Numbered from the stretch's first letter, positions 2,406 through 12,176 are shown. The stretch is DNA of 12,346 nucleotides from Candidatus Edwardsbacteria bacterium (GCA_040755715.1 JBFLXN010000014.1:1-12346), one strand, 5' to 3'. Notes: generated by a model from the letters alone, not told the origin. Translations and numbers: made by a program.

Positions 2406-2858
2406 TCAATATTCGATAGATACAGATTTCCACTTCTTTTCGGCTCTACTCCCTTTGCCTTGGCGCCCTACTTTTTCTTGAAGAGTAGTCAATCTATTGG
2501 GTCCACGATTACGAATTACCAACCACGACCCACGAGTAGGTCCAGATAATTTAATCTCGGCTCGAGAGTGAGGTCCGAGTTTTGTCTCCTCTAACACATC
2601 ACCTTCTAAGGTAAGCCTTCCATTTTCATCTATCCTGCCTTGACTTTCCATCATAGTAACTTCGAACTGTGAAAGGCGCGGGACCATGCTTTGCAGATGA
2701 TAAACAATCAAATATGGCCACCGCATGCTTCCTTTAATCCTTACTACTTTAATTCCCACTGGGCTTGCGAGATTTAATCCCGCTTCCCTTCGAATATTCG
2801 AAGGAATAGATAATCTACCCTCTTCATCAATTTCGCTAAATCCTTTTAACAGCGGCAT
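2406..2858 (-). CDS. tandem AbrB/SpoVT/MraZ-like (swapped-hairpin) domain protein, putative DNA-binding
   Basis: There are two copies of the D-x-x-GR-L/I signature. The first is [21 protein letters not shown] and the second is [21 protein letters not shown]. The ATG at 2858 overlaps the Hsp70 gene end by 23 nt. Confidence 0.7.
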
Positions 2859-4602
2859 CTTTTGTTTCTATCTTTAGATTTCTCTTTATCCGTTTAAACG
2901 CATTATAGACAATCTCAACCAGCTTTCTTAATTCATCAATTTTTACCCTGGTCTCTTTATATTCACCCTTGGATAAAGTTGTCTTTATTGCCAGGATTAG
3001 TTTCTCTATTTTTTCTACATCTGACCTATCTATTAGACCCTCTCCTTCTTCCAGAACCATCTCTGCTGCTTGTATCATACTTTCCGCTCGAATGCCCATT
3101 TGAATCTCTTCTTTTCGCTTTTGGTCTTCCTTGGCATGAATTCGGGCATCTTCTATCATCTCGTTAATCTGGTCCTTGGTCAGCCGGGAAGAAGAACTGA
3201 TCTGGATACTTTTTTCATTATCGGTATGTAAATCCAAGGCTCTGACTTGTAAAATCCCATTGGCATCTATATGGAATGTCACCTCAATCTGAGCTTCACC
3301 CCTTCGACCGGGTGGAATATCAGTAAGCTCAAACTTACCCAGACTTATATTATCGAAGCTCAGGAATCTCTCTCCCTGCAAGACATGGATATCGACCTGA
3401 GTCTGGTTATCTTTAGCTGTCGTAAATATCTGACTGCTGGATGTAGGAATGGTGGTATTTCTTTCTATGATCTTAGCAAATATCCCTCCCTCAGTCTCAA
3501 TTCCTAAAGAAAGGGGAGTAACGTCTAACAATACCACATCTTTTATTTCCCCAATCAAGATATTGGCTTGAATTGCTGCGCCAAGAGCCACTACCTCATC
3601 CGGATTTATATCCTTATAAGGTTCTTTGCCCAGAAGCTCTCGAGCGAGCTTTTGCACAGCAGGCATTCTGGTGGAGCCTCCTACCAAAACTACCCTGTCT
3701 ATCTGGCCGGGGTTGAGCTTTGCATCAGAAAGGACCTGTTTAGTAGGCTCTATCATCTTCTCTAATAAATCCCTGGTTAGCTCTTCAAACTGCTCTCTAC
3801 TCATAGTCAGATGCAGATCCATATCTTGTATGAGAAATGGGATTCTGATATCTGCAAACCTTTTTGTGGAAAGTTCTTTTTTTGCCTTCTCTGAAGCCTC
3901 TTTCAACCGCTGTAAAGCCACCCTATTTCTTCTTACATCCACTCCATGCAACTTCTGAAAATTATCAGCCAAATAATCCATTATCCTCTGGTCCCAATCA
4001 TCTCCGCCAAGATGTGTATTTCCCCCTACTGCCTTCACCTCAAACACGCCATTGCCCAACTCTAAAATAGATACATCGAAAGTGCCTCCACCCAAATCCC
4101 ATATTAGAATATAGTGTATATCCTGCTTGTGTAAGCCGTAGGCCAGGGAAGCAGCAGTAGGTTCATTTATAATCCGCATTACCTCTAATCCGGCTAAGGC
4201 GCCTGCCTCCATAGTCGCCTGGCGCTGGTTATCATTAAAATATGCAGGAACTGTAATTACTGCTTTCTCTATTTTCTCGCCCAAATAATCTTGCGCATCT
4301 TCCTTGACCTTACGAAGGATTAAGGCCGAAATCTCTTGGGGGGTAAATTTTCTCTCGTCAATCTCTACCCCATAATCAGTGCCCATCCGACGTTTAATAG
4401 ATGCAATGGTACGTTCTGGATTTGCAACTGCCTGGGTTCTGGCAAGATTGCCTATCAGCTGCCTCCCTCCATCGGCAAAGGCAACCACTGAAGGAGTAAG
4501 CCTTCCGCCTTCAGCATTGGGTATAATCTCAGGCCTCCCATTGTTTATAAAGGCGGCTACTGAAAAGGTAGTGCCTAAATCTATTCCTATTACCTTACTC
4601 AT
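2836..4602 (-). CDS. dnaK: Hsp70/DnaK-family chaperone paralog (588 aa)
   Basis: Hsp70 motifs present: [56 protein letters not shown] substrate-binding domain ([13 protein letters not shown]) and a helical lid are also present. The true start is the ATG at 4602-4600 ([12 protein letters not shown]), in an ATGA overlap with the upstream stop. The 34-aa extension in the track lies inside the upstream gene. Confidence 0.93.
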
Positions 4603-5672
4603 TTGGCTACCTGGGCTATTTTCTTCTTTAACCGTGGGCTGACCCAGCCGCAGTTTACGCAACCCTTTTCTAATAGCTCTAAGGCGTTTGCCTTTTTTCC
4701 GCATTGAGGGCAGGCTTCTGTTCTTTCTCTAAATGATATGATTCGGGTAAGCGCCCTCTCCCACTCATACATTCCCTCTCCTGAAAAAGAGGCAACCTTT
4801 CTTTGAGAACCACCTTCACCCAGCCCTTGCGCGCAAGAGCTGGGTTCATATATTACGTCAAAGACCTTTTTCTTCTTTAATACCGGGCTCAAATTCCTTA
4901 CATCTATAGCAGAACCTAATATCTTTTCTGAAGGGACTTCAAAAGCCAATCTCTTTTCAAAATCATACCACCAGCATAATCTCTTATTTGTTATATACAG
5001 ATGACCGGGCTTCCAGATACCATCTGATGAGGCCATATGCCAGGCCTTGCCCTTGTGAGTAATCGTTTCTCCTTCTGTCAGGAAATCTAATGTCTCTTCC
5101 TCATATTCGGGTAGAATAAGGTTTTCATCAATTATAAGTCCGCCTAACTTTATCGCCTCTTTTATAGACTCACCTAATTTATCTATCTCCACAGACCGCA
5201 GACGCGCTAATCTATCATCCTTAAGAATAAGTAAGAGCGTATCTTCTTGTATCAAGAGCCCCTTTATCTCATCTAAAGAGGTTTGAAACATCACTTCATT
5301 AAGCTCTTGATTCATGAGCAGCAGTCTTTTATCAGTTAAATAAATCTGCCCCGGTCTCCAACTAACATAGATTCCTTTGGCATAAAAAAAAGAGCCCAAC
5401 ATCTTAAGTTTAAGCTCTTCTCCCTGGATTAAAGAAATCTCTTTTTTAGCTCTATTATCTTTTTCCCAGGCGCGAATCTTCTCATCCCATGCCTTCATCA
5501 TGCCATACTCGAGCATAGTCTCCATGCCGGCCAGGGCGGCTCTTAAATTAACACCGATTAAAGGGATGCCCGCCACAGAGATGATAATGTCAGCGTTGAT
5601 CACCAACCCCTTATCCAGGACCCTATCCAATAAATCAACCAATGTGACCCGTGCATCTCTGGTTGGCTCCAT
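4599..5672 (-). CDS. GvpA/J/M-family (GvpM-like) N-terminal domain fused to two PH/GRAM-like domains and a C-terminal zinc ribbon
   Basis: The N-terminus [49 protein letters not shown] matches the gas-vesicle structural core (LxxVxDRxLDKGxV...). Two PH-like motifs follow, [15 protein letters not shown] and [16 protein letters not shown]. The C-terminus is [25 protein letters not shown]. The ATG at 5672 is preceded by AAGGAG. Confidence 0.85.
4815..4848. repeat. second copy of the 26-bp palindrome (one mismatch), flanked by direct ttca, inside the GvpM-like fusion CDS
   Basis: cccagcccttgcgcgcaagagctggg lies at 4819-4844, with ttca at 4815-4818 and 4845-4848. Element plus one flank is 30 nt, or 10 codons, so it is in frame. 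It encodes [10 protein letters not shown]. Confidence 0.7.
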
Positions 5673-5691
5673 ATGTCGCTTCGCTCCTTTA

Positions 5692-5733
5692 TCAGAATTC
5701 AGAAGTCAGATTTTTCTATCCTCTGTCCTCTGT
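5692..5733. promoter_or_regulatory. two sets of tandem heptamers in the 85-nt gap upstream of the GvpM-like fusion gene
   Basis: TCAGA occurs at 5692, 5699 and 5706, with a 7-bp period. cctctgt occurs twice in tandem at 5720-5733. Confidence 0.25.
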
Positions 5734-5757
5734 TACCTGTTTTTCTATGCTTTGGCT

Positions 5758-6522
5758 TTAGGCGAATGAGTATGGTGGCCAGGGGCCTGTAAATCGAACG
5801 ATCAACCCATTTTCTTTTTTAATCTTTTCTAAAACTTCGCCAAGCCTTTTGACATTTTCCTTAGCAACCAAACAGGATAAGTTCATGATCATCTGTAAGT
5901 TCTCATCTACTTTTTTAGCCTTATCTATATGAATATCAAAAACTTCTTTCTTTATCCGAGCATAAAAGTCCTTAAAATATTCATCGGCCTTTTTTCCCAT
6001 CTCTTTCCTTAATAGATTCTTTATCTTCTCTTCATACATATAGGCTGTGCCCGGTGGTTTAGACTTCAACTCCTCTTTCAAATTCTTAATCTCTGGGCTA
6101 TCTTCGGCTATTCTTTCAACCATAACCTTGGGATCCCATAAAATCTGGACTCCATATTCTTCTTTGCCCTTGACTTTATTTAATCTTTCTTTTAGATTCT
6201 GGTAATCTTTTTGCAGCCACTTTTTCATATTTTCTTTCGGGTCTATGCCTTCTTCGCCAATAATTATGGTATCAAATGCCAGAGGCAGGACAGTACCAAA
6301 CCTCTGCCAGGCATAATCCACTACCTTCTGGTGAGTCATTACCCAACCTTTTACAATATCTTTATCTTCTGATTCGTAGGGGTGAGGTTCACAGTTGTGA
6401 ACAACGGCTGAAATTTCCTGGTATGGAAGAGTGTAAACGTTGCTCCCATCAATTCCAATCTCACCCAGGCTTACCTTTTCGTTGCCATCAGCTATGCAGT
6501 AGAGATATATACCGTCGTTCAC
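5758..6522 (-). CDS. gvpF: gas vesicle protein GvpF/GvpL family
   Basis: N-terminus GIYLYCIADG, then VLPLAFDT, then C-terminal FTGPWPPYSFA, which together are typical of GvpF/L. The preferred start is the GTG at 6522-6520. It forms a GTGA overlap with the gvpK stop and is preceded by AAGGAGA with an 8-nt spacer. The track's ATG at 6549 lacks an SD and overlaps gvpK by 31 nt. Confidence 0.88.
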   Translation of the reverse strand: MNDGIYLYCIADGNEKVSLGEIGIDGSNVYTLPYQEISAVVHNCEPHPYESEDKDIVKGWVMTHQKVVDYAWQRFGTVLPLAFDTIIIGEEGIDPKENMKKWLQKDYQNLKERLNKVKGKEEYGVQILWDPKVMVERIAEDSPEIKNLKEELKSKPPGTAYMYEEKIKNLLRKEMGKKADEYFKDFYARIKKEVFDIHIDKAKKVDENLQMIMNLSCLVAKENVKRLGEVLEKIKKENGLIVRFTGPWPPYSFA

Positions 6523-6836
6523 TTGGCTGTCTCCTTTATTTTTTCCCATCTCGTGGGATTAGCTATTTTATCTATAACATCGTTGACTATATTATCTAAA
6601 CCATCTCTCACTGATTGAACTGCCTCACCAACCCCTTGTTCCTCTTTTATATGCTCTATTGCGACGTCGAGTTCCTTAAGCGCTCTACCCAGACGTTCTA
6701 TCTCTTCTTCGTTTAGGCTTCCACCCTCCATTCGCTTTACCGCCTGAAGTTTAAGGGCATCTCTGATTATTTCAACCAAGGCAAGCACAAGGCCTAAAAC
6801 ACCGCTTTTAAGATTATCTTCATTGATATCTATCAT
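6519..6836 (-). CDS. gvpK: gas vesicle protein GvpK
   Basis: GLVLALVEIIRDALKLQAVKRMEGGSLNEEEIERLGRAL matches the GvpK core as I remember it. The ATG forms an ATGA overlap with the upstream stop. Confidence 0.88.
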   Translation of the reverse strand: MIDINEDNLKSGVLGLVLALVEIIRDALKLQAVKRMEGGSLNEEEIERLGRALKELDVAIEHIKEEQGVGEAVQSVRDGLDNIVNDVIDKIANPTRWEKIKETAK

Positions 6837-7420
6837 TTTTCTATTTTTACTTCTAAAATCCCATTCTTGTATGTTTTTTCTAGTTTTCCTTTAGATTCGC
6901 AGGGTAGTTTTAATTGCTGATGGTACTTGCGATCAGGAATATCTACTGATATTGCAAGGCTGTCTTTGACTAAATCAATTTTTATATCCTTTTCTTCAAT
7001 GCCTGGTATTTCAGCAATCACTTTAATATGATCTTCCTCATCAAAGATATCCGCTGGCCGCTCTTGAGGTGTTGGAGGGGGTGAGGGTTTTACTTCTGGT
7101 CTCTGTTTAGCAAAAGGTTTTCCTCTAAAGGCCCTTCCTCTTATGCCCGGAGGGATGCCGCCGGGGATACCCGAAGGCCTTCCTTCAGCTCTTTTCAAAG
7201 GGGCTTCTTTTATCTTACGCTCCACCTCTTTATCAACCTCCTTAAGCCTCTCTTTGAAAGCCGGGGATTTCTCCAGGCCTTTAATTAATCCCCCTAATCC
7301 GGGAATTACCTTGCCCAGACCTTTAAGTATTCCTCCTGCTACACTTTCAGATTCTTTTTCTCCCGCCTCGGGCGGGACATCCTCTGGTCGCTTTTTGTCT
7401 TTATCTTCTTTACCGGTCAT
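6833..7420 (-). CDS. Hsp20/alpha-crystallin domain protein with a long Gly/Pro-rich N-terminal region
   Basis: The C-terminus reads as an alpha-crystallin domain: DIFDEEDHIKVIAEIPGIEEKDIKIDLVKDSLAISVD...LEKTYKNGILEVKIEK. The N-terminal region carries G-rich repeats (GGILKGLGKVIPGLGGLIKGLEK, GIPGGIPPGIRG). The ATG at 7420 is preceded by AAAGGTG. Confidence 0.85.
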   Translation of the reverse strand: MTGKEDKDKKRPEDVPPEAGEKESESVAGGILKGLGKVIPGLGGLIKGLEKSPAFKERLKEVDKEVERKIKEAPLKRAEGRPSGIPGGIPPGIRGRAFRGKPFAKQRPEVKPSPPPTPQERPADIFDEEDHIKVIAEIPGIEEKDIKIDLVKDSLAISVDIPDRKYHQQLKLPCESKGKLEKTYKNGILEVKIEK

Positions 7421-7468
7421 ATTCTACACCTTTCTTTAGCTTTACTTGTTAAGCTGCTAGCTTATTTC

Positions 7469-7819
7469 TCATTCTGCCTTTATATCTTTTGCCTTGGCGC
7501 TTACCCAGCCACACCAGGGACAGCCCTCATCAAGTAATTCTTCTGCCAGAACTTTTTTGCCGCACTGTGGACAAAGTTCTTTACCCTTCATGGCTTCTTT
7601 CCAGGCTTCTGTTTCCACATTAGTCCCTGATGGAAACTCAAGGCCATACTTTGCTGCTGTCTCAAAAGAAGCCAGGGCTGCCCTTATCTTAATTCCCAAA
7701 AGCTCTACTCCGGCAACAGATATGGCGATATCCGCATTAATCACCAGGCCTTTGTCTAAAACCCGGTCTATGACATCAACCAAAGTAACACTTGCATCTT
7801 TTGTCGCTTCTATTGCCAT
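7469..7819 (-). CDS. gvpJ: gas vesicle structural protein, GvpA/J/M family (GvpJ-like), with a C-terminal zinc ribbon
   Basis: [53 protein letters not shown] is the gas-vesicle core, and it looks J-like from memory of the haloarchaeal GvpJ sequence. The C-terminus is CPQCGKKVLAEELLDEGCPWCGWVS. The ATG at 7819 is preceded by AAGGAGG with an 8-nt spacer. Confidence 0.88.
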   Translation of the reverse strand: MAIEATKDASVTLVDVIDRVLDKGLVINADIAISVAGVELLGIKIRAALASFETAAKYGLEFPSGTNVETEAWKEAMKGKELCPQCGKKVLAEELLDEGCPWCGWVSAKAKDIKAE

Positions 7820-7832
7820 TTCTATTGCCTCC

Positions 7833-8225
7833 TTACCCCGCTACTACACCTTGGCCTTTACATTTGGGGCAAGCCACTGGATGAGGTTTGCGCGGATATA
7901 CCCCACTTCCATTGCAAGTGGTGCATTTTTTAGAAGGTGTCATCCTTGTAACCACCCCTACCCCACCACAGGCTAAACAGTGTATGCGACTTGTAGTATA
8001 TGGGTCTATTCCCTTGCCACCACAAAAATTGCATTTCATTGTCGGGCCAATAATTCTCACCTTACCTTTTCCTAAACACACCTGGCAATCAGAAAGCTTA
8101 GATAAAAGCTGAAAAGGATCTTTTCCTATTCCATTACAAAAGGCGCATATAACTTCCACTTTATTTTTTTCTATTCGCCTAAGCTCCTCAGGTGCAATCG
8201 TAGCCCATTTTGGTTTTTTAGCCAT
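7833..8225 (-). CDS. DnaJ-type cysteine-rich zinc-finger protein with six CxxCxGxG repeats and no J domain
   Basis: Six repeats: CAFCNGIG, CQVCLGKG, CNFCGGKG, CLACGGVG, CTTCNGSG, CPKCKGQG. No HPD motif is present. The ATG at 8225 is preceded by GAGGAGGTG. Confidence 0.85.
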   Translation of the reverse strand: MAKKPKWATIAPEELRRIEKNKVEVICAFCNGIGKDPFQLLSKLSDCQVCLGKGKVRIIGPTMKCNFCGGKGIDPYTTSRIHCLACGGVGVVTRMTPSKKCTTCNGSGVYPRKPHPVACPKCKGQGVVAG

Positions 8226-8262
8226 CTTTCACCTCCTCACCTTCGGCTGGTCGGGGTTAGCA

Positions 8263-8320
8263 GTTATTAGTTATAAGTTATGTATTTTTAACTGATAACT
8301 TATAACCCGTAATCCATAAC
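8263..8320. promoter_or_regulatory. inverted arrays of GTTAT/ATAAC half-sites with 7-bp phasing (operator-like); includes a 12-bp perfect inverted repeat and a candidate promoter
   Basis: gttat occurs at 8263, 8270 and 8277; ataac occurs at 8295, 8302 and 8316. The perfect inverted repeat is gttataagttat (8270-8281) paired with ataacttataac (8295-8306), with a 13-nt loop. On the minus strand, TTATCA (8298-8293), a 17-nt spacer and TATAAC (8275-8270) resemble -35 and -10 boxes. The site lies in the 100-nt gap upstream of the zinc-finger gene. Confidence 0.35.
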
Positions 8321-8325
8321 TTTTT

Positions 8326-8901
8326 TTACCTTCTCTTCTTCTTGGGTTTCCCTTTGGTCTCTTTAGTCTTCTCCTTTATCTCTTCTTTTTCCTCCAAATC
8401 TTTTATGCGCTTCTTAAGTTCTGCCTCTTTTGTCTTAAAATCATCCCCAGTTATTTCAGCTCTCTCAAAACGCATTTTAAGCTCGAGGATTTCTTCTTCT
8501 AAGGCGACCTTAGGGTCTTTTTCTTCTTCAGCCTGCGCTCCCACTGCGGCAGTGATTCCTTTGACCATCTCTACTGGTTGATATGGCGCTGAAATTAGCT
8601 TACCCAAGAATCTAAATAACCCTATATCCTTTGGCCGTTCCAACTTGCGCCTTCTAATGGCTGGTACATTAGATATTCCCCATTTCTTAGTTGGCATCAT
8701 ACCCCAATATTTGGGAATAGTAATATTGGGTTTAGCGCTTACTAGGGGAATAGGTTTAGAAACCAAGGGAATCTCTTTACTAACCAGCGGAATAGCGCTT
8801 GCTACTTGGGGCATAGCCTTACTAACCGATGGTAAGCTACCCGCAGTAAAAGGAATGAATTTGGCTTCTTTCTTGTTAGATTTTTTCTTTTTGGGAGACA
8901 T
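8326..8901 (-). CDS. GvpG-like protein with an N-terminal [ILM]P-x-V-[SA]-K heptad-repeat extension and a Lys-rich tail
   Basis: The C-terminal half, LFRFLGKLISAPYQPVEMVKGITAAVGAQAEEE...LEEEILELKMRFERAEITGDDFKTKEAELKKRIKDLEE, parallels the canonical GvpG at 11444-11728. Compare LELKMRFERAEI here with LELQMRFEMGEV there. The N-terminal repeats are LPSVSKA, MPQVASA, IPLVSKE, IPLVSKP and IPLVSAKP. Confidence 0.78.
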   Translation of the reverse strand: MSPKKKKSNKKEAKFIPFTAGSLPSVSKAMPQVASAIPLVSKEIPLVSKPIPLVSAKPNITIPKYWGMMPTKKWGISNVPAIRRRKLERPKDIGLFRFLGKLISAPYQPVEMVKGITAAVGAQAEEEKDPKVALEEEILELKMRFERAEITGDDFKTKEAELKKRIKDLEEKEEIKEKTKETKGKPKKKRR

Positions 8902-8930
8902 CTTCCCTCCGCTCTTTTTTATATTTATAT

Positions 8931-10895
8931 TTATCCATATATTTCCTTAGAAAAATCCTTTAATCGGTCAATACCTTTGATCTGATAAGGGAAAAGCGGC
9001 AGCTGACCAATTTGATATTGCGAAGACCTTTCCCTCTCTATTTCCTGGATAATCTTAATCTGCTCACCTCTTTTTGACTCGCAAAAATTACATCTAGTTT
9101 TCGGAAGAATCATATTAACCAGAATATAATGAGAGGGGATGTTAAGTCGCTTAAGGTTCTCAAGGAGGCCGTCCATCTCACTCTTGCCCATAGCCTCTGG
9201 AATACCTACAACCACAAATTGACACCTCGCCGGATCTGTGAGAATCTCCTGTATTTTTCTCACCTTCTTAGAAAACTCTATCATCTCTTCAGCCTGTTTG
9301 GCCAATCGTACTATCCCCTTATATTTTATAAGTAATTTAAATATTGCATTTAGCCACTCCCTGGCAACCTGAGGCATCTCTAGAAACCGCAATAGGTGTC
9401 CTGTAGCTGCTGAATCTAAGATATATATATCAAATTTTCCTCCATCTATAAATTCCACCACCTTAGCTAAAGCCATAATCTCATCCAAACCGGGAGGAGT
9501 AAGTGAGATAAGTTCCTCTAAAATCTCCCTATCGAACTTAACATCCACTCCACCTCCGATAAATTTACTAAATACCTCGCTTATTTGGTCTTTATAATCC
9601 TTTTTAAAATTCTCAAGCAACTTCAAAGCATCTATCTCCAGGGCAAATAGATTATTGGGGACAGTCTCCTTCGGGGACAGTCCCCCTATCTGAGTGAGAT
9701 TATCTCCAATAGATAGACCAAAACTATCGGATAGCGAATGGGCAGGGTCGGTAGAAAAGACTAAGACTTTTTTAGAGGGGTATTTTTTGGCCATACTAAG
9801 TGCAGTGGCTGAAGCTATGGATGTTTTACCCACCCCACCTTTTCCCCCAAATATATATAATATAATGCCTTTCTCTATTAATTGAGGCAATTTAATAATA
9901 GAGAAAATCTTAGACTTGAAATCAAAAGGTTTCTTTCCAATGGGAAGGCGATGTGGCTTCTCTTCAAATAAAACCTGGGCATATTCCTTTAGTCGATCCA
10001 TCCCTCTGATTTGATATGGAAATATCGGTATCTGATGAAGTTCGAGATTTGCGAATTTTTGCCTGATTATATCTAATTCTTTCTTTTGTTCTTTCTCTTC
10101 CTTAGAACAAAAGGGACACCTGTTTTGACTACTTTTAATTTGATTGACGATAATAGATTTCACTGAAATTCCATATCCTTTTAATATCGCCAACAACCTT
10201 TCTGTCTCTTCTATAGCCAAGGTCTCGGGTTTAGTGACAGGTATAAATTCTGTTGAATCGCGGTTCTTTAGTAACCGACTTACTCTATCCACGTCGCTTT
10301 TCACCATCTCTAAAAATTCATCAGCGTCGTCTTTTTTGTATTTGCCAGCAAAATGGCTGGCTAAAAATCTATGCTTAGATTGCATCAAATCTAAAACTTC
10401 GACCCACTTTTTCATCTGAAGGGGTAAACCTAAAAGCCTTATGGTATGTCCTGTAGGTGCGGTGTCCAAGATGATTAAATCGTATTTCTCTTCTCTTAAG
10501 ATATTAGCTATTTTTATAACCGCCATTATCTCATCTAACCCTGGAATAGAAAGGGAAAAGAAATTCTCTATATCTTGCCTGTCGAAATAAGTTCCTCTCT
10601 CAACGATCTTTTTCATCACCAAATCATATTTCTTTTTAAAAAGAGAGGCCTCTTCCTCAGCTTTTATTTCTAAAGCCCAAAGATTGTTTAAATCTTTTAT
10701 GGGTGTAATGGTATTACCAACAGTATAGCCCAAACTATCACCCACTGAATGAGCAGGGTCACAGGATACAATCAAAATCCTCTGCTTGGGATAATGTTGG
10801 GCTAAATAAAGGCCAGTAGCAGTCGCTGATGTAGTTTTTCCGCAACCCCCCTTTCCACCAAAGATTATTAGACGCCGCTTCTCGCTGATTTTCAT
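8931..10895 (-). CDS. tandem-fused ArsA/Get3 (TRC40)-family ATPase (654 aa, two homologous halves)
   Basis: Half 1 has GGKGGCGKTT, CDPAHSVGDSLG, DTAPTGHTIRLLGLP and a CPFC motif. Half 2 has GGKGGVGKTS, TDPAHSLSDSFG, DSAATGHLLRFLEMP and a CNFC motif. Each half ends in a matching tail: IPIFPYQIRGMDRLKEY in half 1 and LPLFPYQIKGIDRLKDF in half 2. ATG at 10895. Confidence 0.92.
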   Translation of the reverse strand: MKISEKRRLIIFGGKGGCGKTTSATATGLYLAQHYPKQRILIVSCDPAHSVGDSLGYTVGNTITPIKDLNNLWALEIKAEEEASLFKKKYDLVMKKIVERGTYFDRQDIENFFSLSIPGLDEIMAVIKIANILREEKYDLIILDTAPTGHTIRLLGLPLQMKKWVEVLDLMQSKHRFLASHFAGKYKKDDADEFLEMVKSDVDRVSRLLKNRDSTEFIPVTKPETLAIEETERLLAILKGYGISVKSIIVNQIKSSQNRCPFCSKEEKEQKKELDIIRQKFANLELHQIPIFPYQIRGMDRLKEYAQVLFEEKPHRLPIGKKPFDFKSKIFSIIKLPQLIEKGIILYIFGGKGGVGKTSIASATALSMAKKYPSKKVLVFSTDPAHSLSDSFGLSIGDNLTQIGGLSPKETVPNNLFALEIDALKLLENFKKDYKDQISEVFSKFIGGGVDVKFDREILEELISLTPPGLDEIMALAKVVEFIDGGKFDIYILDSAATGHLLRFLEMPQVAREWLNAIFKLLIKYKGIVRLAKQAEEMIEFSKKVRKIQEILTDPARCQFVVVGIPEAMGKSEMDGLLENLKRLNIPSHYILVNMILPKTRCNFCESKRGEQIKIIQEIERERSSQYQIGQLPLFPYQIKGIDRLKDFSKEIYG

Positions 10896-10949
10896 CTGCG
10901 TTCATCTGATTTCCGGTGATATCTACGTTTATCTACGTTATTCTACTTC
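10891..10949. repeat. 10-bp-phased direct repeats spanning the gvpO end and the ATPase start
   Basis: ttcatctg occurs at 10891 and 10901. atctacgtt occurs at 10921 and 10931, with a degenerate ttctacttc at 10941. The first pair duplicates the ATG context (CAGATGAA twice on the minus strand). Confidence 0.4.
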
Positions 10950-11207
10950 AACTGTCTCGGTATCCGCCCTCTTTCTTAACCTTGTCCGATTAAATTCCAT
11001 TACATTGCCATCGTCATCCAAAATTACCTCATAGGTGGCTAAGATATCCATCTGGTCAGGAATGGAGTGCTTTTCTATCATCTCCATAGTAACCTTCCAG
11101 CCTTTTTCATCCTTAGCCGCCCCTAAAGTAGTAGAAAGTTCCAGTCCTGTAAACCTACTCAATTCCTCACGAGCCTTCTCAATAATCTGTTGCATTGTCT
11201 TCGCCAT
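10938..11207 (-). CDS. gvpO: gas vesicle protein GvpO
   Basis: The pattern AREELSRFTGLELSTTLGAAKDEKGWKVTMEMIEKHSIPDQMDILATYEVILDDDGNVMEFNRTRLRKR matches my recollection of the GvpO family (...G-W-x-V-x-x-E-x-x-E...P...D-x-LA-x-YEV-x-LD..G.......R). The ATG is preceded by AAGGAGGT with a 7-nt spacer. Confidence 0.82.
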   Translation of the reverse strand: MAKTMQQIIEKAREELSRFTGLELSTTLGAAKDEKGWKVTMEMIEKHSIPDQMDILATYEVILDDDGNVMEFNRTRLRKRADTETVEVE

Positions 11208-11232
11208 CTTTTATACCTCCTTTTTTAAAAAG

Positions 11233-11439
11233 TTATAGTTTCCTTTTAATCTTAGCCCCACAGGAAGGGCAGAATGCATAACCATAAATATACCGCCACC
11301 TTGCCCCACATTCCTGACATTCGATATTTAAGGGTTCTCCGCATTCTGAACAAAACCGCAGATTCCCCCAGGTTACACTTCCGCATCGAGGGCACCTAAA
11401 TGCACCTTTTGGTAGTGCTGGTTCTATTCTTTCTTCCAC
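11233..11439 (-). CDS. double zinc-ribbon protein (68 aa)
   Basis: Four CxxC pairs: CPRCG, CSECG, CQECG, CPSCG. The GTG start at 11439 is preceded by GGAGGTG with a 5-nt spacer. Confidence 0.72.
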   Translation of the reverse strand: MEERIEPALPKGAFRCPRCGSVTWGNLRFCSECGEPLNIECQECGARWRYIYGYAFCPSCGAKIKRKL

Positions 11440-11443
11440 ATTC

Positions 11444-11728
11444 TCACCTCCTCTCCTCTTTGTATTTCCTGATTGCCTCTAATCTTTCCAGGATTTTTCC
11501 TTCTTTCTTTTTATATTCCTCTTCGTTCACCTCGCCCATCTCAAAGCGCATCTGAAGTTCTAGCAACTCTTCCTGCACTTTAGACTCATCGGTCACCTCA
11601 GTCTCGGCTGTCTCCTTTAGTTTATTTCCGATCCATACCACCCCCTTTATAGGCAACAAAAAAGGCAATAAAATATCGGTTAATCCAAAACCCGATCCTT
11701 TAGAACCACTCTCAGGCTTTTCCTTCAC
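11444..11728 (-). CDS. gvpG: gas vesicle protein GvpG
   Basis: LTDILLPFLLPIKGVVWIGNKLKETAETEVTDESKVQEELLELQMRFEMGEVNEEEYKKKEGKILERLEAIRK fits the GvpG pattern. The present start is the GTG at 11728-11726, in a GTGA overlap created by the inserted element. See the findings for details. Confidence 0.85.
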   Translation of the reverse strand: MKEKPESGSKGSGFGLTDILLPFLLPIKGVVWIGNKLKETAETEVTDESKVQEELLELQMRFEMGEVNEEEYKKKEGKILERLEAIRKYKEERR

Positions 11729-12020
11729 CCCGCCCTTCCTTTCCTTGCAATGCCAAGTCTAGATTTTAATCTTGCCAAACCACTTCCGAACTTCTTCAAG
11801 CTTTTTTCCCTTTCAAATGCCACATCTTTAGATCTATAGGCCTCAAAATATATTAACTCCACTGGTAACATCTTTCTAGTTGAATATATCTTTCCTTGCT
11901 TATGCTCCATTAACCTTTTTTTCAAGTTATTCGTACATCCTATATAAATCCAGTCTTTAACTTTACTACTGAGTAAATATATATAATGCCAATTAGGCTT
12001 TTTAGGAAGGGCGGGGTTCA
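11724..12020 (-). mobile_element. putative miniature autonomous element: TTCA | 12-bp TIR | GIY-YIG ORF | 12-bp TIR | TTCA
   Basis: The plus strand has ccccgcccttcc at 11728-11739 and its perfect reverse complement ggaagggcgggg at 12005-12016. Direct ttca copies flank these at 11724-11727 and 12017-12020. The ORF start (xTG) and stop (TGA) both fall within the flanking TGAA copies. Confidence 0.5.
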
Positions 12021-12021
12021 C
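11725..12021 (-). CDS. small GIY-YIG nuclease family protein (98 aa)
   Basis: WHYIYLLSSKVKDWIYIGCTNNLKKRLMEHKQG...ELIYFEAY...AFEREKSLKK carries the GIY/YIG motifs, the conserved Arg, the Glu and the RE-x-x-x-K signature. Start is the GTG at 12021 and stop is the TGA at 11727-11725. The ORF is bounded by 12-bp inverted repeats. Confidence 0.85.
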   Translation of the reverse strand: MNPALPKKPNWHYIYLLSSKVKDWIYIGCTNNLKKRLMEHKQGKIYSTRKMLPVELIYFEAYRSKDVAFEREKSLKKFGSGLARLKSRLGIARKGRAG

Positions 12022-12176
12022 CCTGCCCTTCCTTTTCTCGCAATGCCAAGCCTATATTCAATTTGGCTAAACTGTTTTTGCATTTCTTTAAAATCTTTGC
12101 CCTGCCCTTAAGCTTAAAATGTGGGATTTACCCAGCCCTTGCGCGCAAGGGCTGGGTTTAGGAAGGGCGGGGTTCA
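12017..12176 (-). mobile_element. degenerate, internally deleted tandem copy of the GIY-YIG element
   Basis: The TIRs are ccctgcccttcc at 12021-12032 (one mismatch) and ggaagggcgggg at 12161-12172, with flanking ttca at 12017-12020 and 12173-12176. The copy keeps the first 7 codons (ATG AAC CCC GCC CTT CCT AAA = MNPALPK). It also keeps the last 11 codons plus stop (RLGIARKGRAG*), which differ from the intact copy only synonymously. Its interior is disrupted by stops and a 26-bp palindrome. Confidence 0.45.
12127..12160. repeat. 26-bp perfect palindrome cccagcccttgcgcgcaagggctggg flanked by direct ttta
   Basis: The palindrome spans 12131-12156 and is exactly self-complementary. Direct ttta copies sit at 12127-12130 and 12157-12160. 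It is GC-rich in an AT-rich context. Confidence 0.7.

Follow-up and report, generated by a model that had tools for sequence, protein, structure and literature searches.

A gene in a gas-vesicle (gvp) cluster of Candidatus Edwardsbacteria bacterium, here called ArsA-1, very probably encodes a Get3-like ATPase dedicated to the gvp system, and not an arsenite pump. The gene lies in a stretch of 12,346 nucleotides (GCA_040755715.1, JBFLXN010000014.1:1-12346), referred to below as the window, and is a single open reading frame (ORF) with an ATG start at positions 8931..10895, on the minus strand like every other window feature described here. Its product is a tandem Get3/ArsA-type ATPase of 654 amino acids (aa). 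A 100% identical protein from a metagenome-assembled genome (MAG) is named 'ArsA family ATPase [Candidatus Edwardsbacteria bacterium]' at NCBI. By analogy with Get3, we propose that ArsA-1 may work as an ATP-driven, metal-hinged pseudo-dimer, the groove of which would shield a hydrophobic Gvp segment and release it at the nascent vesicle; we give this proposal about an even chance of being correct.

The Pfam family ArsA_ATPase matched ArsA-1 twice (E = 1.7e-139), and the two halves of the protein share 37% identity across 316 residues (E = 2e-65), showing that its motifs belong to a conserved domain architecture and are not due to chance. Sequence scores against the PDB define an N-terminal Get3-like half (aa 1-310, 9966..10895) and a C-terminal Get3-like half (aa 346-654, 8934..9860). 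The linker between them (aa 311-345, 9861..9965) is largely disordered by prediction, with an AlphaFold2 (AF2) local confidence score (pLDDT) below 50 at aa 321-334. An earlier model-generated note on the window (the original prediction) had placed a Walker A motif, DPAHS and the signature D(T/S)A(P/A)TGH in each half, and all of these were located. The deviant Walker A motif is GKGGCGKT in the N half (aa 14-21, 10833..10856), where G13-T22 is invariant across an alignment of 93 homologues, and GKGGVGKT in the C half (aa 351-358, 9822..9845), where G351-K357 is invariant and T358 is conserved in at least 90% of the same sequences. Switch I is DPAHS in both halves, at aa 46 (10746..10760; D46-S50 invariant), the catalytic Asp of which is the equivalent of Get3 D57, and at aa 383 (9735..9749; P384 and A385 invariant, D383 and H386 conserved in at least 90%). 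A motif scan found switch II, with the ArsA-Get3 signature, as DTAPTGH at aa 144 in the N half (10446..10466), and the C half contains DSAATGH at aa 494 (9396..9416), an S/A variant typical of ArsA-1 orthologues.

Each half additionally contains a CxxC motif, CPFC in the N half (C260/C263, 10107..10118) and CNFC in the C half (C602/C605, 9081..9092). The two motifs had been predicted to occupy equivalent positions, and they do share one alignment column. This column is that of the Get3 zinc hinge, again as predicted: both motifs align with C285/C288 of yeast Get3, with CDFC of Get3 from M. jannaschii (MjGet3) and with CEFC of Get3 from M. thermautotrophicus (MtGet3). The motif is absent from the arsenite pumps, from Chlamydomonas ArsA1 (CrArsA1) and from a cyanobacterial gvp-linked homologue in the alignment. 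All 93 homologues in the alignment have C260, C263, C602 and C605, and of the 120 closest homologues (49-85% identity) no full-length one lacks either motif. A profile-free search, exhaustive over 1.84 billion cluster representatives, gave, among the best 150 listed, 130 full-length tandem proteins with 31-48% identity to ArsA-1, of which 98, standing for clusters at 50% identity, have a CxxC in both halves, 7 in one half and 25 in none; P0158, a representative without the motif, is on a contig of only 2.4 kb, too short for context. Family members occur in MAGs labelled Edwardsbacteria, Nitrospirota, Omnitrophica, Zixibacteria, Acidobacteria, Actinomycetota and Desulfobacteraceae. According to Farkas et al. 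(PMC6593721), a tandem ArsA needs no CxxC dimerisation clamp. Because covalent fusion makes such a clamp needless, the strict invariance of the cysteines points to a mechanical hinge or a sensing role.

Family models place ArsA-1 with Get3. The only NCBIfam subfamily whose cutoff it passes is GET3_arsA_TRC40 (TIGR00345), with 463 bits against a cutoff of 135, and the halves alone score 245 and 223 bits; by motifs and score (TIGR00345, PF02374) it is a member of the Get3/TRC40/ArsA superfamily. It falls below the cutoffs of the arsenite-pump equivalog arsen_driv_ArsA (TIGR04291; 223.1 bits vs 650) and of ArsA_halo (354.5 bits vs 800). When the N and C halves were scored against PDB sequences, they obtained 220 and 192 bits with CrArsA1, 171 and 159 bits with MjGet3, 167 and 153 bits with MtGet3, 126-146 bits (yeast Get3, 146) and 105-131 bits with eukaryotic Get3, and 129 and 103 bits with E. 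coli ArsA. The top scores of both halves are thus with CrArsA1, a carrier of tail-anchored (TA) proteins, and with archaeal Get3, and the lowest are with arsenite pumps. The stretch from switch II to the next strand, which is the site of the TRC40 insert in Get3, comprises 64 residues in the N half and 57 in the C half, compared with 63 in yeast Get3, 73 in MjGet3 and 37-50 in arsenite pumps. In the AF2 model this insert consists of a long helix, a short loop and a second helix, and its length fits Get3, with no distinct TRC40 helix 8 'lid'. In a neighbour-joining tree of the halves, the N halves of the gvp-linked tandem proteins form one group and the C halves another, both apart from the Klebsiella/Halobacterium ArsA clade and from the CrArsA1 duplication, with bootstrap values of only 46-56% at the deep nodes. 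The topology fits one old duplication giving rise to the gvp-linked tandem proteins. The phylogenetic placement that the original prediction had called for accordingly sets both halves outside the pump clade.

A genuine arsenite/antimonite pump subunit (ArsA) sitting by chance in a gvp cluster would have the same two-domain architecture, and would explain why ArsA is the best full-length structural match and why database names read 'arsenite-transporting ATPase' or 'ArsA family ATPase'. Such a subunit would also be expected to resemble ArsA where ArsA-1 departs from it, namely in the equivalog score, in the length of the insert and in the tree. The metalloid-binding cysteines are missing as well: in an alignment with Klebsiella ArsA from an arsRDABC operon, which has all of C113, C172 and C422 (E. 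coli numbering), neither half of ArsA-1 has Cys at these columns, and the residues found instead are S, K/S-type and G. The original prediction had considered arsenite efflux unlikely from the lack of arsR, arsB, arsC and arsD, and none of these is present among the 18 window ORFs scanned against Pfam; likewise, no arsB, acr3, arsD, arsR or arsC was found in any related locus examined. We consider it extremely improbable that ArsA-1 is a pump subunit, and regard this reading as effectively refuted already.

The gene neighbourhoods of relatives show that the linkage of ArsA to gvp genes is deep and general. Neighbourhoods were taken from genome loci (L002-L007), metagenome loci (L008-L010, L013-L016, L018) and the contig of the representative P0265; L001, the window's own contig, and L019, too short to judge, were left out of the count. 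A gvp cluster was found in 16/16 informative neighbourhoods, at 31-85% identity to ArsA-1, so the conserved linkage expected by the original prediction extends down to 31% identity. Neither of the two findings that it had named as contrary to its view, a pump-type ArsA with metalloid cysteines or a lack of gvp linkage, was made. GvpG is the most constant close neighbour of the ArsA gene: GvpG or a GvpG-like gene adjoins it or is one or two genes off, save in three Desulfobacteraceae loci, where the distance is ~6 kb.

Ten loci with 51-85% identical orthologues (L002-L004, L008-L010, L013-L016), from MAGs labelled Nitrospirota, Thermodesulfovibrionales, Actinomycetota and others, form one syntenic supercluster. 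Its consensus order, which is not kept in full by every locus, starts with GvpN (AAA_5, ~305 aa), two small proteins, Hsp20 and a Cdc48-like double-AAA+ protein, followed by a GvpF/L::J-domain fusion, GvpF/L once or twice, GvpG, a zinc ribbon, GvpO and ArsA-1. After ArsA-1 come a GvpG-like protein, a DnaJ zinc finger, GvpA, Hsp20, GvpK, GvpF/L, GvpA/J::GRAM, Hsp70 and further genes, and at the end a second, longer tandem ArsA paralogue (698-793 aa, CxxC in both halves). GvpO is directly before ArsA-1 in all ten loci, and a GvpG-like orthologue is directly after it in L002-L004, L008-L010 and L015. The second tandem ArsA (ArsA-2), found in L003, L009, L010 and L013-L016, has an N-terminal extension and DTAPTGH in both halves. 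It is mostly downstream of Hsp70, with an earlier position in L014-L016, and is followed by a GvpG gene in L014. The window stops too early for a copy of ArsA-2 to be seen.

More distant relatives are also gvp-linked. The Desulfobacteraceae loci (L005-L007) have only one ArsA gene each (43-45% identity), located at the distal end of a cluster of this same type. P0213 (33% identity, CxxC in both halves; L018) is in a cluster with the order GvpN-x-x-GvpF/L-GvpG-ArsA-GvpA-GvpK-GvpA. P0265 (31% identity, CxxC in both halves), on a contig of JGI 3300043331, is in a cluster that starts with two GvpA genes, a PAS histidine kinase and a response regulator, and continues with GvpF/L, GvpG, the tandem ArsA, GvpF/L, GvpA/J, GvpF/L and GvpK. 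In both of these distant clusters GvpG is immediately upstream of the ArsA gene. On a Nostoc plasmid, gvpA-A-C-N-J-K-F-G-(V)-W is followed by a tandem ArsA that lacks the CxxC, and this in turn by a Cdc48-like AAA ATPase.

Chaperone genes are a further feature of these clusters. A Cdc48-like double-AAA+ protein (CDC48_N plus two AAA domains, ~720 aa) and a GvpF/L::J-domain fusion are encoded upstream of the window-type segment in L002, L008-L010 and L013-L016, and the pair is also found in L005-L007 and in the Nostoc locus (L012). With Hsp70, the DnaJ zinc finger and the Hsp20s, they make up a private gas-vesicle chaperone network. A literature search for gas vesicles with Hsp70 or Cdc48 returned no account of this cluster type or chaperone network. 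At L008, a Volactin-family (PF25216) protein is encoded at 5308-6363, between the Cdc48-like and GvpF/L::J-domain genes.

The original prediction had suggested that ArsA-1 stands in for GvpN, and the Pfam scan indeed found no GvpN in the window. This is because the window ends in the upstream GvpF/L genes, ~7 kb short of the GvpN site of L002, its closest relative (92% nucleotide identity). Where enough upstream sequence is available, GvpN is encoded in 8/8 syntenic relatives, as a ~305-aa AAA_5 protein 8-10 kb upstream of ArsA-1 (L002, L003, L009, L010, L013-L016), and it is present in the Nostoc cluster and in L018 too. GvpN and the ArsA gene coexist in this lineage. The distant, compact P0265 cluster, which has no AAA_5 gene within 10 kb on either side, speaks for replacement, and is the only context in which an ArsA-type protein could be the sole ATPase of the cluster; the two ATPases belong to unrelated classes (SIMIBI vs AAA+), and ArsA-1 has no AAA_5 match in Pfam and is thus no member of the GvpN family. 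We regard replacement of GvpN by ArsA-1 as very unlikely, and the suggestion found no support in this lineage.

The AF2 model of ArsA-1, built from the 93-sequence alignment, has a mean pLDDT of 82.7 and a predicted TM-score (pTM) of 0.79. In Foldseek searches of the PDB, the whole chain matched closed ArsA 9nbw with a target TM-score (TMt) of 0.79 and 1f48 with a TMt of 0.74, and each half matched closed Get3 3zq6 (TMt 0.83) and the Get3-TA complex 4xwo (0.81). Because the whole chain matches closed ArsA and the halves match closed Get3, the model represents a closed pseudo-dimer. In both halves, as in Get3, a long helix (aa 261-280 and aa 603-623) has the CxxC at its N-terminus, and by homology the four cysteines would share one intramolecular metal site. 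The hydrophobic fraction of the helical subdomains is 42-47%, alike in ArsA-1 and Get3, and the helices of the ArsA-1 insert keep conserved amphipathic hydrophobic faces.

These features suggest a mechanism; what we infer in it is that a metal is bound, that a groove forms, which protein is the client and how it is released. The fused halves, each with a complete ATP site, would pack like the closed Get3 dimer or closed ArsA. The two CxxC motifs, one from each half, would come together on the pseudo-twofold axis to coordinate a single metal ion (zinc, if Get3 is a guide), on which the pseudo-dimer would hinge as ATP drives it open and shut. When it is closed with ATP bound, the helical subdomains, with the Get3-length insert missing in arsenite pumps, may form a composite hydrophobic groove. 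This groove would shield an aggregation-prone hydrophobic segment of a Gvp protein, candidates being a GvpA/GvpJ-type core and the N-terminal hydrophobic helix of GvpG. At the nascent vesicle, a partner, for instance GvpG, the GvpG-like protein or GvpO, would probably set off ATP hydrolysis, and the client would then be freed for incorporation. ArsA-1 would act beside GvpN, the Cdc48-like AAA+ protein, Hsp70 with the J-domain::GvpF/L fusion, the Hsp20s and the second ArsA, without replacing GvpN.

Several precedents are consistent with this mechanism. The CxxC of Get3 is regarded as the hinge of its open-closed transition, and monomeric, fused Cr-ArsA1 carries chloroplast TA proteins (PMC11170914), so a pseudo-dimer of this fused kind is able to handle hydrophobic clients. 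When assembly factors do not precede it, GvpA aggregates and brings about proteotoxic stress (PMC12848028). GvpO binds both GvpA and GvpN, and GvpN binds GvpA (PMC9372576).

Some observations weigh against the proposed carrier function. The original prediction had called for a check for a Met-rich client groove, and none was seen: the helical subdomains of ArsA-1 contain only 5 and 3 Met, compared with 13-14 in archaeal Get3 and 6 in yeast Get3. Conserved amphipathic faces would also be expected of ordinary helix packing. The metal at the four-Cys site could be other than zinc, and the deep nodes of the tree have the modest bootstrap values given above. No window protein has a C-terminal transmembrane-like segment, and thus no TA protein is encoded in the window. 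The model gvp clusters of Halobacterium, B. megaterium and Serratia, and the Anabaena genes expressed in E. coli, are not known to need this gene for vesicle assembly. ArsA-1 is thus accessory at best.

The cysteines may serve a purpose other than that of a hinge. The four-Cys site might be primarily a redox or metal sensor, tying vesicle assembly, or a holdase activity that needs no ATP, to the exposure of these anaerobes to oxygen or redox change. It could bind zinc, like the switch that makes yeast Get3 a holdase under oxidative stress, or a bridging Fe-S cluster, as do Mrp/NBP35 and NifH, which are relatives within this ATPase class. The strict invariance of the cysteines in a covalently fused protein that needs no dimerisation clamp would be accounted for, as would the unusual richness of the cluster in Cys4 zinc-ribbon and DnaJ zinc-finger modules. 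The MAGs of relatives are labelled Nitrospirota, Thermodesulfovibrionales, Desulfobacteraceae and Omnitrophica, which we take to be anaerobes that are placed within redox gradients by their buoyancy. That Get3 can act as a redox-switched holdase is itself established, and is mentioned in PMC6593721. The position and spacing of the CxxC motifs, however, fit the zinc hinge of Get3 and not the cluster site of NBP35, and the full conservation of both ATP sites argues for an ATP-driven cycle. We consider a sensor unlikely, though it is compatible with the carrier mechanism and not exclusive of it.

Somewhat less unlikely, in our judgement, is that ArsA-1 carries no segment at all, and is instead an ATP-dependent switch acting on a soluble GvpF/L-GvpG-GvpO nucleation complex, or a ParA/MinD-like vesicle positioner. 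Its steadiest neighbours are GvpG, GvpG-like, GvpO and GvpF/L genes, and not GvpA; the SIMIBI class includes positioning ATPases, and ArsA-1 has weak Pfam matches to CbiA/ParA. The scarcity of Met in the groove region points the same way. Positioning of the ParA/MinD kind depends on a monomer-dimer cycle, which a covalent pseudo-dimer cannot run, and neither a membrane-targeting helix nor a DNA-binding surface is evident in ArsA-1, of which the nearest relatives in sequence and structure are all client carriers or metalloid pumps.

An extension of the carrier mechanism, which we offer as a speculative and rather improbable one, is that ArsA acts together with GvpG (or the GvpG-like protein) as a GET-like pair that delivers to a protein-shelled organelle. 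In this scheme the hydrophobic core of GvpA/J would be the cargo of the metal-hinged pseudo-dimer, and the coiled coil of GvpG, anchored by its N-terminal hydrophobic helix, would open the ATPase at the growing vesicle, in a role like that of Get1/WRB. The invariant four-Cys site could add redox gating in anaerobes. If true, this would be the first Get3-type targeting pathway ending at something other than a lipid membrane.

Apart from a 5'-partial gene at 1-330, which was read by eye only, the gene content of the window was taken from the Pfam scan. All 18 scanned ORFs are on the minus strand. Gvp-family domains are present in eight of them (two GvpF/L, GvpG, GvpG-like, GvpO, GvpA, GvpK and GvpA/J-like), and four encode chaperone-type proteins (Hsp70, two Hsp20 and a DnaJ-type zinc finger). 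The remaining ORFs encode zinc-ribbon or small accessory proteins, with the addition of an inserted GIY-YIG gene. In the direction of transcription, the order is GvpF/L (cut by the window end), GIY-YIG, GvpG, a double zinc ribbon, GvpO and ArsA-1, followed by GvpG-like, a DnaJ-type CxxCxGxG zinc finger, GvpA with a zinc ribbon, Hsp20, GvpK and GvpF/L, and then by GvpA/J::PH/GRAM, Hsp70, an AbrB/MraZ-like protein, a zinc-ribbon protein, PH-like::Hsp20 and two small ORFs.

GvpO (10938..11207; Pfam GvpO, E = 1.6e-18) is directly upstream of ArsA-1. GvpG (11444..11728; Pfam GvpG, E = 6.8e-24), with an N-terminal hydrophobic helix and a coiled coil, is two genes upstream, and the GvpG-like gene (8326..8901; Pfam GvpG, E = 1.9e-9) is directly downstream. 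The GvpG-like protein has a basic N-terminus, an N-terminal extension of tandem (I/V)PLVS repeats and a conserved WG..P...WG motif before the GvpG domain. No Get1/2 homologue was found, and a sub-threshold match to CHD5/Get1/WRB (E = 0.048) in the coiled coil of the GvpG-like protein of L008 was judged to be probable coiled-coil noise.

The top hydrophobic segments encoded in the window are those of the GvpA-type cores, GvpK and the N-terminal helix of GvpG. The most hydrophobic 19-mer (Kyte-Doolittle score, 2.14) is in a GvpA/J-like protein of 357 aa (4599..5672; Pfam Gas_vesicle, E = 4.5e-17), which is fused to PH/GRAM-like repeats and a zinc ribbon, and the second (1.86) is in a GvpA-type shell protein of 116 aa with a C-terminal zinc ribbon (7469..7819; Pfam Gas_vesicle, E = 9.4e-17). 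Both proteins are candidate clients. One and the same zinc ribbon, CPQCGKK...C..CGW, forms the C-terminal end of each. The 357-aa protein has two PH/GRAM-like repeats, W(K/R)PG(H/Q)(L/I)Y(L/I)T(N/D)(K/L)RL, and the same repeat occurs in a 333-aa PH::Hsp20 fusion at 597-1598.

The co-resident chaperones include Hsp70/DnaK (588 aa, 2836..4602; Pfam HSP70, E = 1.4e-214), a GvpH-like Hsp20/alpha-crystallin protein (6833..7420; Pfam HSP20, E = 3.6e-5) and a stand-alone DnaJ-type CxxCxGxG zinc-finger protein (7833..8225; Pfam DnaJ_CXXCXGXG, E = 4.1e-11). A GIY-YIG nuclease gene (98 aa, 11725-12021; insert 11725-12172) is situated exactly between the upstream GvpF/L and GvpG. These two genes abut or overlap in the 92%-identical L002 and in all other relatives, with no intervening sequence. 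Because repeated GGAAGGGCGGGGTTCA / CACCC(C/T)GCCCTTCCTTT motifs flank the insert, it has the look of a small mobile element. At 1-330, downstream of the 88-aa ORF (MRKLIYVPIIHMSADLGSIARQVDKRG...), is the 5'-partial gene; it was considered as the start of a second ArsA paralogue and rejected, since it has no P-loop and is not ArsA.

The nucleotide identity between the window (2889-11727) and L002 (9170-17986, from a 'Nitrospirota' MAG) is mosaic. It is 97-99.7% over window positions 3500-6800 (Hsp70 to GvpK), 60-77% over 7089-7688 (Hsp20, GvpA) and 71-88% over 8289-10088 (GvpG-like and the C-terminal two-thirds of the ATPase), and ~95% upstream of that. The pattern is suggestive of recombination among related clusters. 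The two MAGs also differ in their phylum labels, Edwardsbacteria for the window and Nitrospirota for L002.

Two earlier studies describe proteins related to ArsA-1. Castillo & Saier (2010, Int J Microbiol, PMC2963123) found that gvp operons from four phyla encode two-domain ArsA homologues, together with hsp20. They noted that the three ArsA cysteines are lacking, and proposed that the ATPase 'energizes' a step of biogenesis other than the one served by GvpN. Their clusters 4 and 6 resemble ours in encoding a two-domain protein of ~640 aa among gvpF/G/J/K/L/N/O and hsp20, with no ars genes nearby and without conservation of C113/C172/C422. ArsA-1 is thus a gvp-operon ArsA as there described, having two domains and a gvp cluster around it, and neither ars genes nor the ArsA cysteines. 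The CxxC motifs, zinc and a Get3-like chaperone mechanism are not mentioned in that paper. Its largest gvp-linked group is cyanobacterial, and the Nostoc homologue examined here, unlike ArsA-1, has no CxxC; the ArsA-1 cluster type is also much larger, is rich in chaperones and has two ArsA paralogues.

The tandem bacterial Get3 homologues of Farkas, De Laurentiis & Schwappach (2019, Traffic, PMC6593721) have the TRC40 insert in both domains. Their Group 8, from Myxococcales and some Proteobacteria, adds the CxxC, a combination called 'unique ... in all domains of life', and a general chaperone function was suggested for it, with no link to gas vesicles. According to Castillo & Saier, the genes of this kind in M. 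xanthus lack gvp linkage. ArsA-1 has the features of Group 8 (tandem halves, insert, CxxC and nucleotide site), a likeness to the Myxococcales sequences drawn from their description only, whereas its own family is gvp-linked and present in MAGs of other phyla. Among the papers of the library searched, none contains both 'Get3' and 'gas vesicle', and for ArsA with gvp or gas vesicles only Castillo & Saier was relevant. The gvp linkage of two-domain ArsA (2010) and the tandem-plus-CxxC architecture (2019) are therefore already known. The present analysis adds the join of these two descriptions, the invariance of the four cysteines, the adjacency of GvpG and GvpO, the pair of paralogues and the chaperone-rich cluster.

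Among characterized proteins, ArsA-1 shares with Get3/TRC40 the deviant Walker A motif, switches I and II, the CxxC position, the insert length and a TMt of 0.8 per half, but it is a fused chain instead of a homodimer, is not Met-rich, and has neither Get1/2 or Get4/5 partners nor a nearby TA client. The context of Get3 is a membrane, whereas that of ArsA-1 is a protein-shelled organelle. Chlamydomonas ArsA1 (5zme) is likewise a fused two-domain carrier of the Get3 type and the top PDB sequence match of both halves, but has a domain-swapped helix pair in place of the CxxC (PMC11170914), an internal duplication independent of that of ArsA-1 in the neighbour-joining tree, and a poor whole-chain fit (TMt 0.61, root-mean-square deviation 16 Å). 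The ArsA pumps of E. coli R773 and L. ferriphilum are pseudo-dimers with DTAPTGH and give the best whole-chain match (TMt 0.74-0.79). From them ArsA-1 differs in lacking the metalloid cysteines, ars context and a passing equivalog score, and in having a longer helical insert and the CxxC motifs.

Gas vesicles are being engineered as acoustic reporters, and their heterologous assembly is limited by aggregation of GvpA, a very hydrophobic shell protein, and by the proteotoxic stress that results (PMC12848028). A dedicated Get3-type carrier could improve gas-vesicle expression in new hosts, and ArsA-1, which is kept in hundreds of natural gvp clusters together with Hsp70, J-domain::GvpF/L, Hsp20s and a Cdc48-like ATPase, is a specific and inexpensive candidate to try. 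The gvp linkage also gives a testable physiological context to the tandem-plus-CxxC bacterial Get3 homologues described in 2019. If the proposed carrier function is true, the Get3 fold would be used for hydrophobic clients outside the targeting of tail-anchored membrane proteins.

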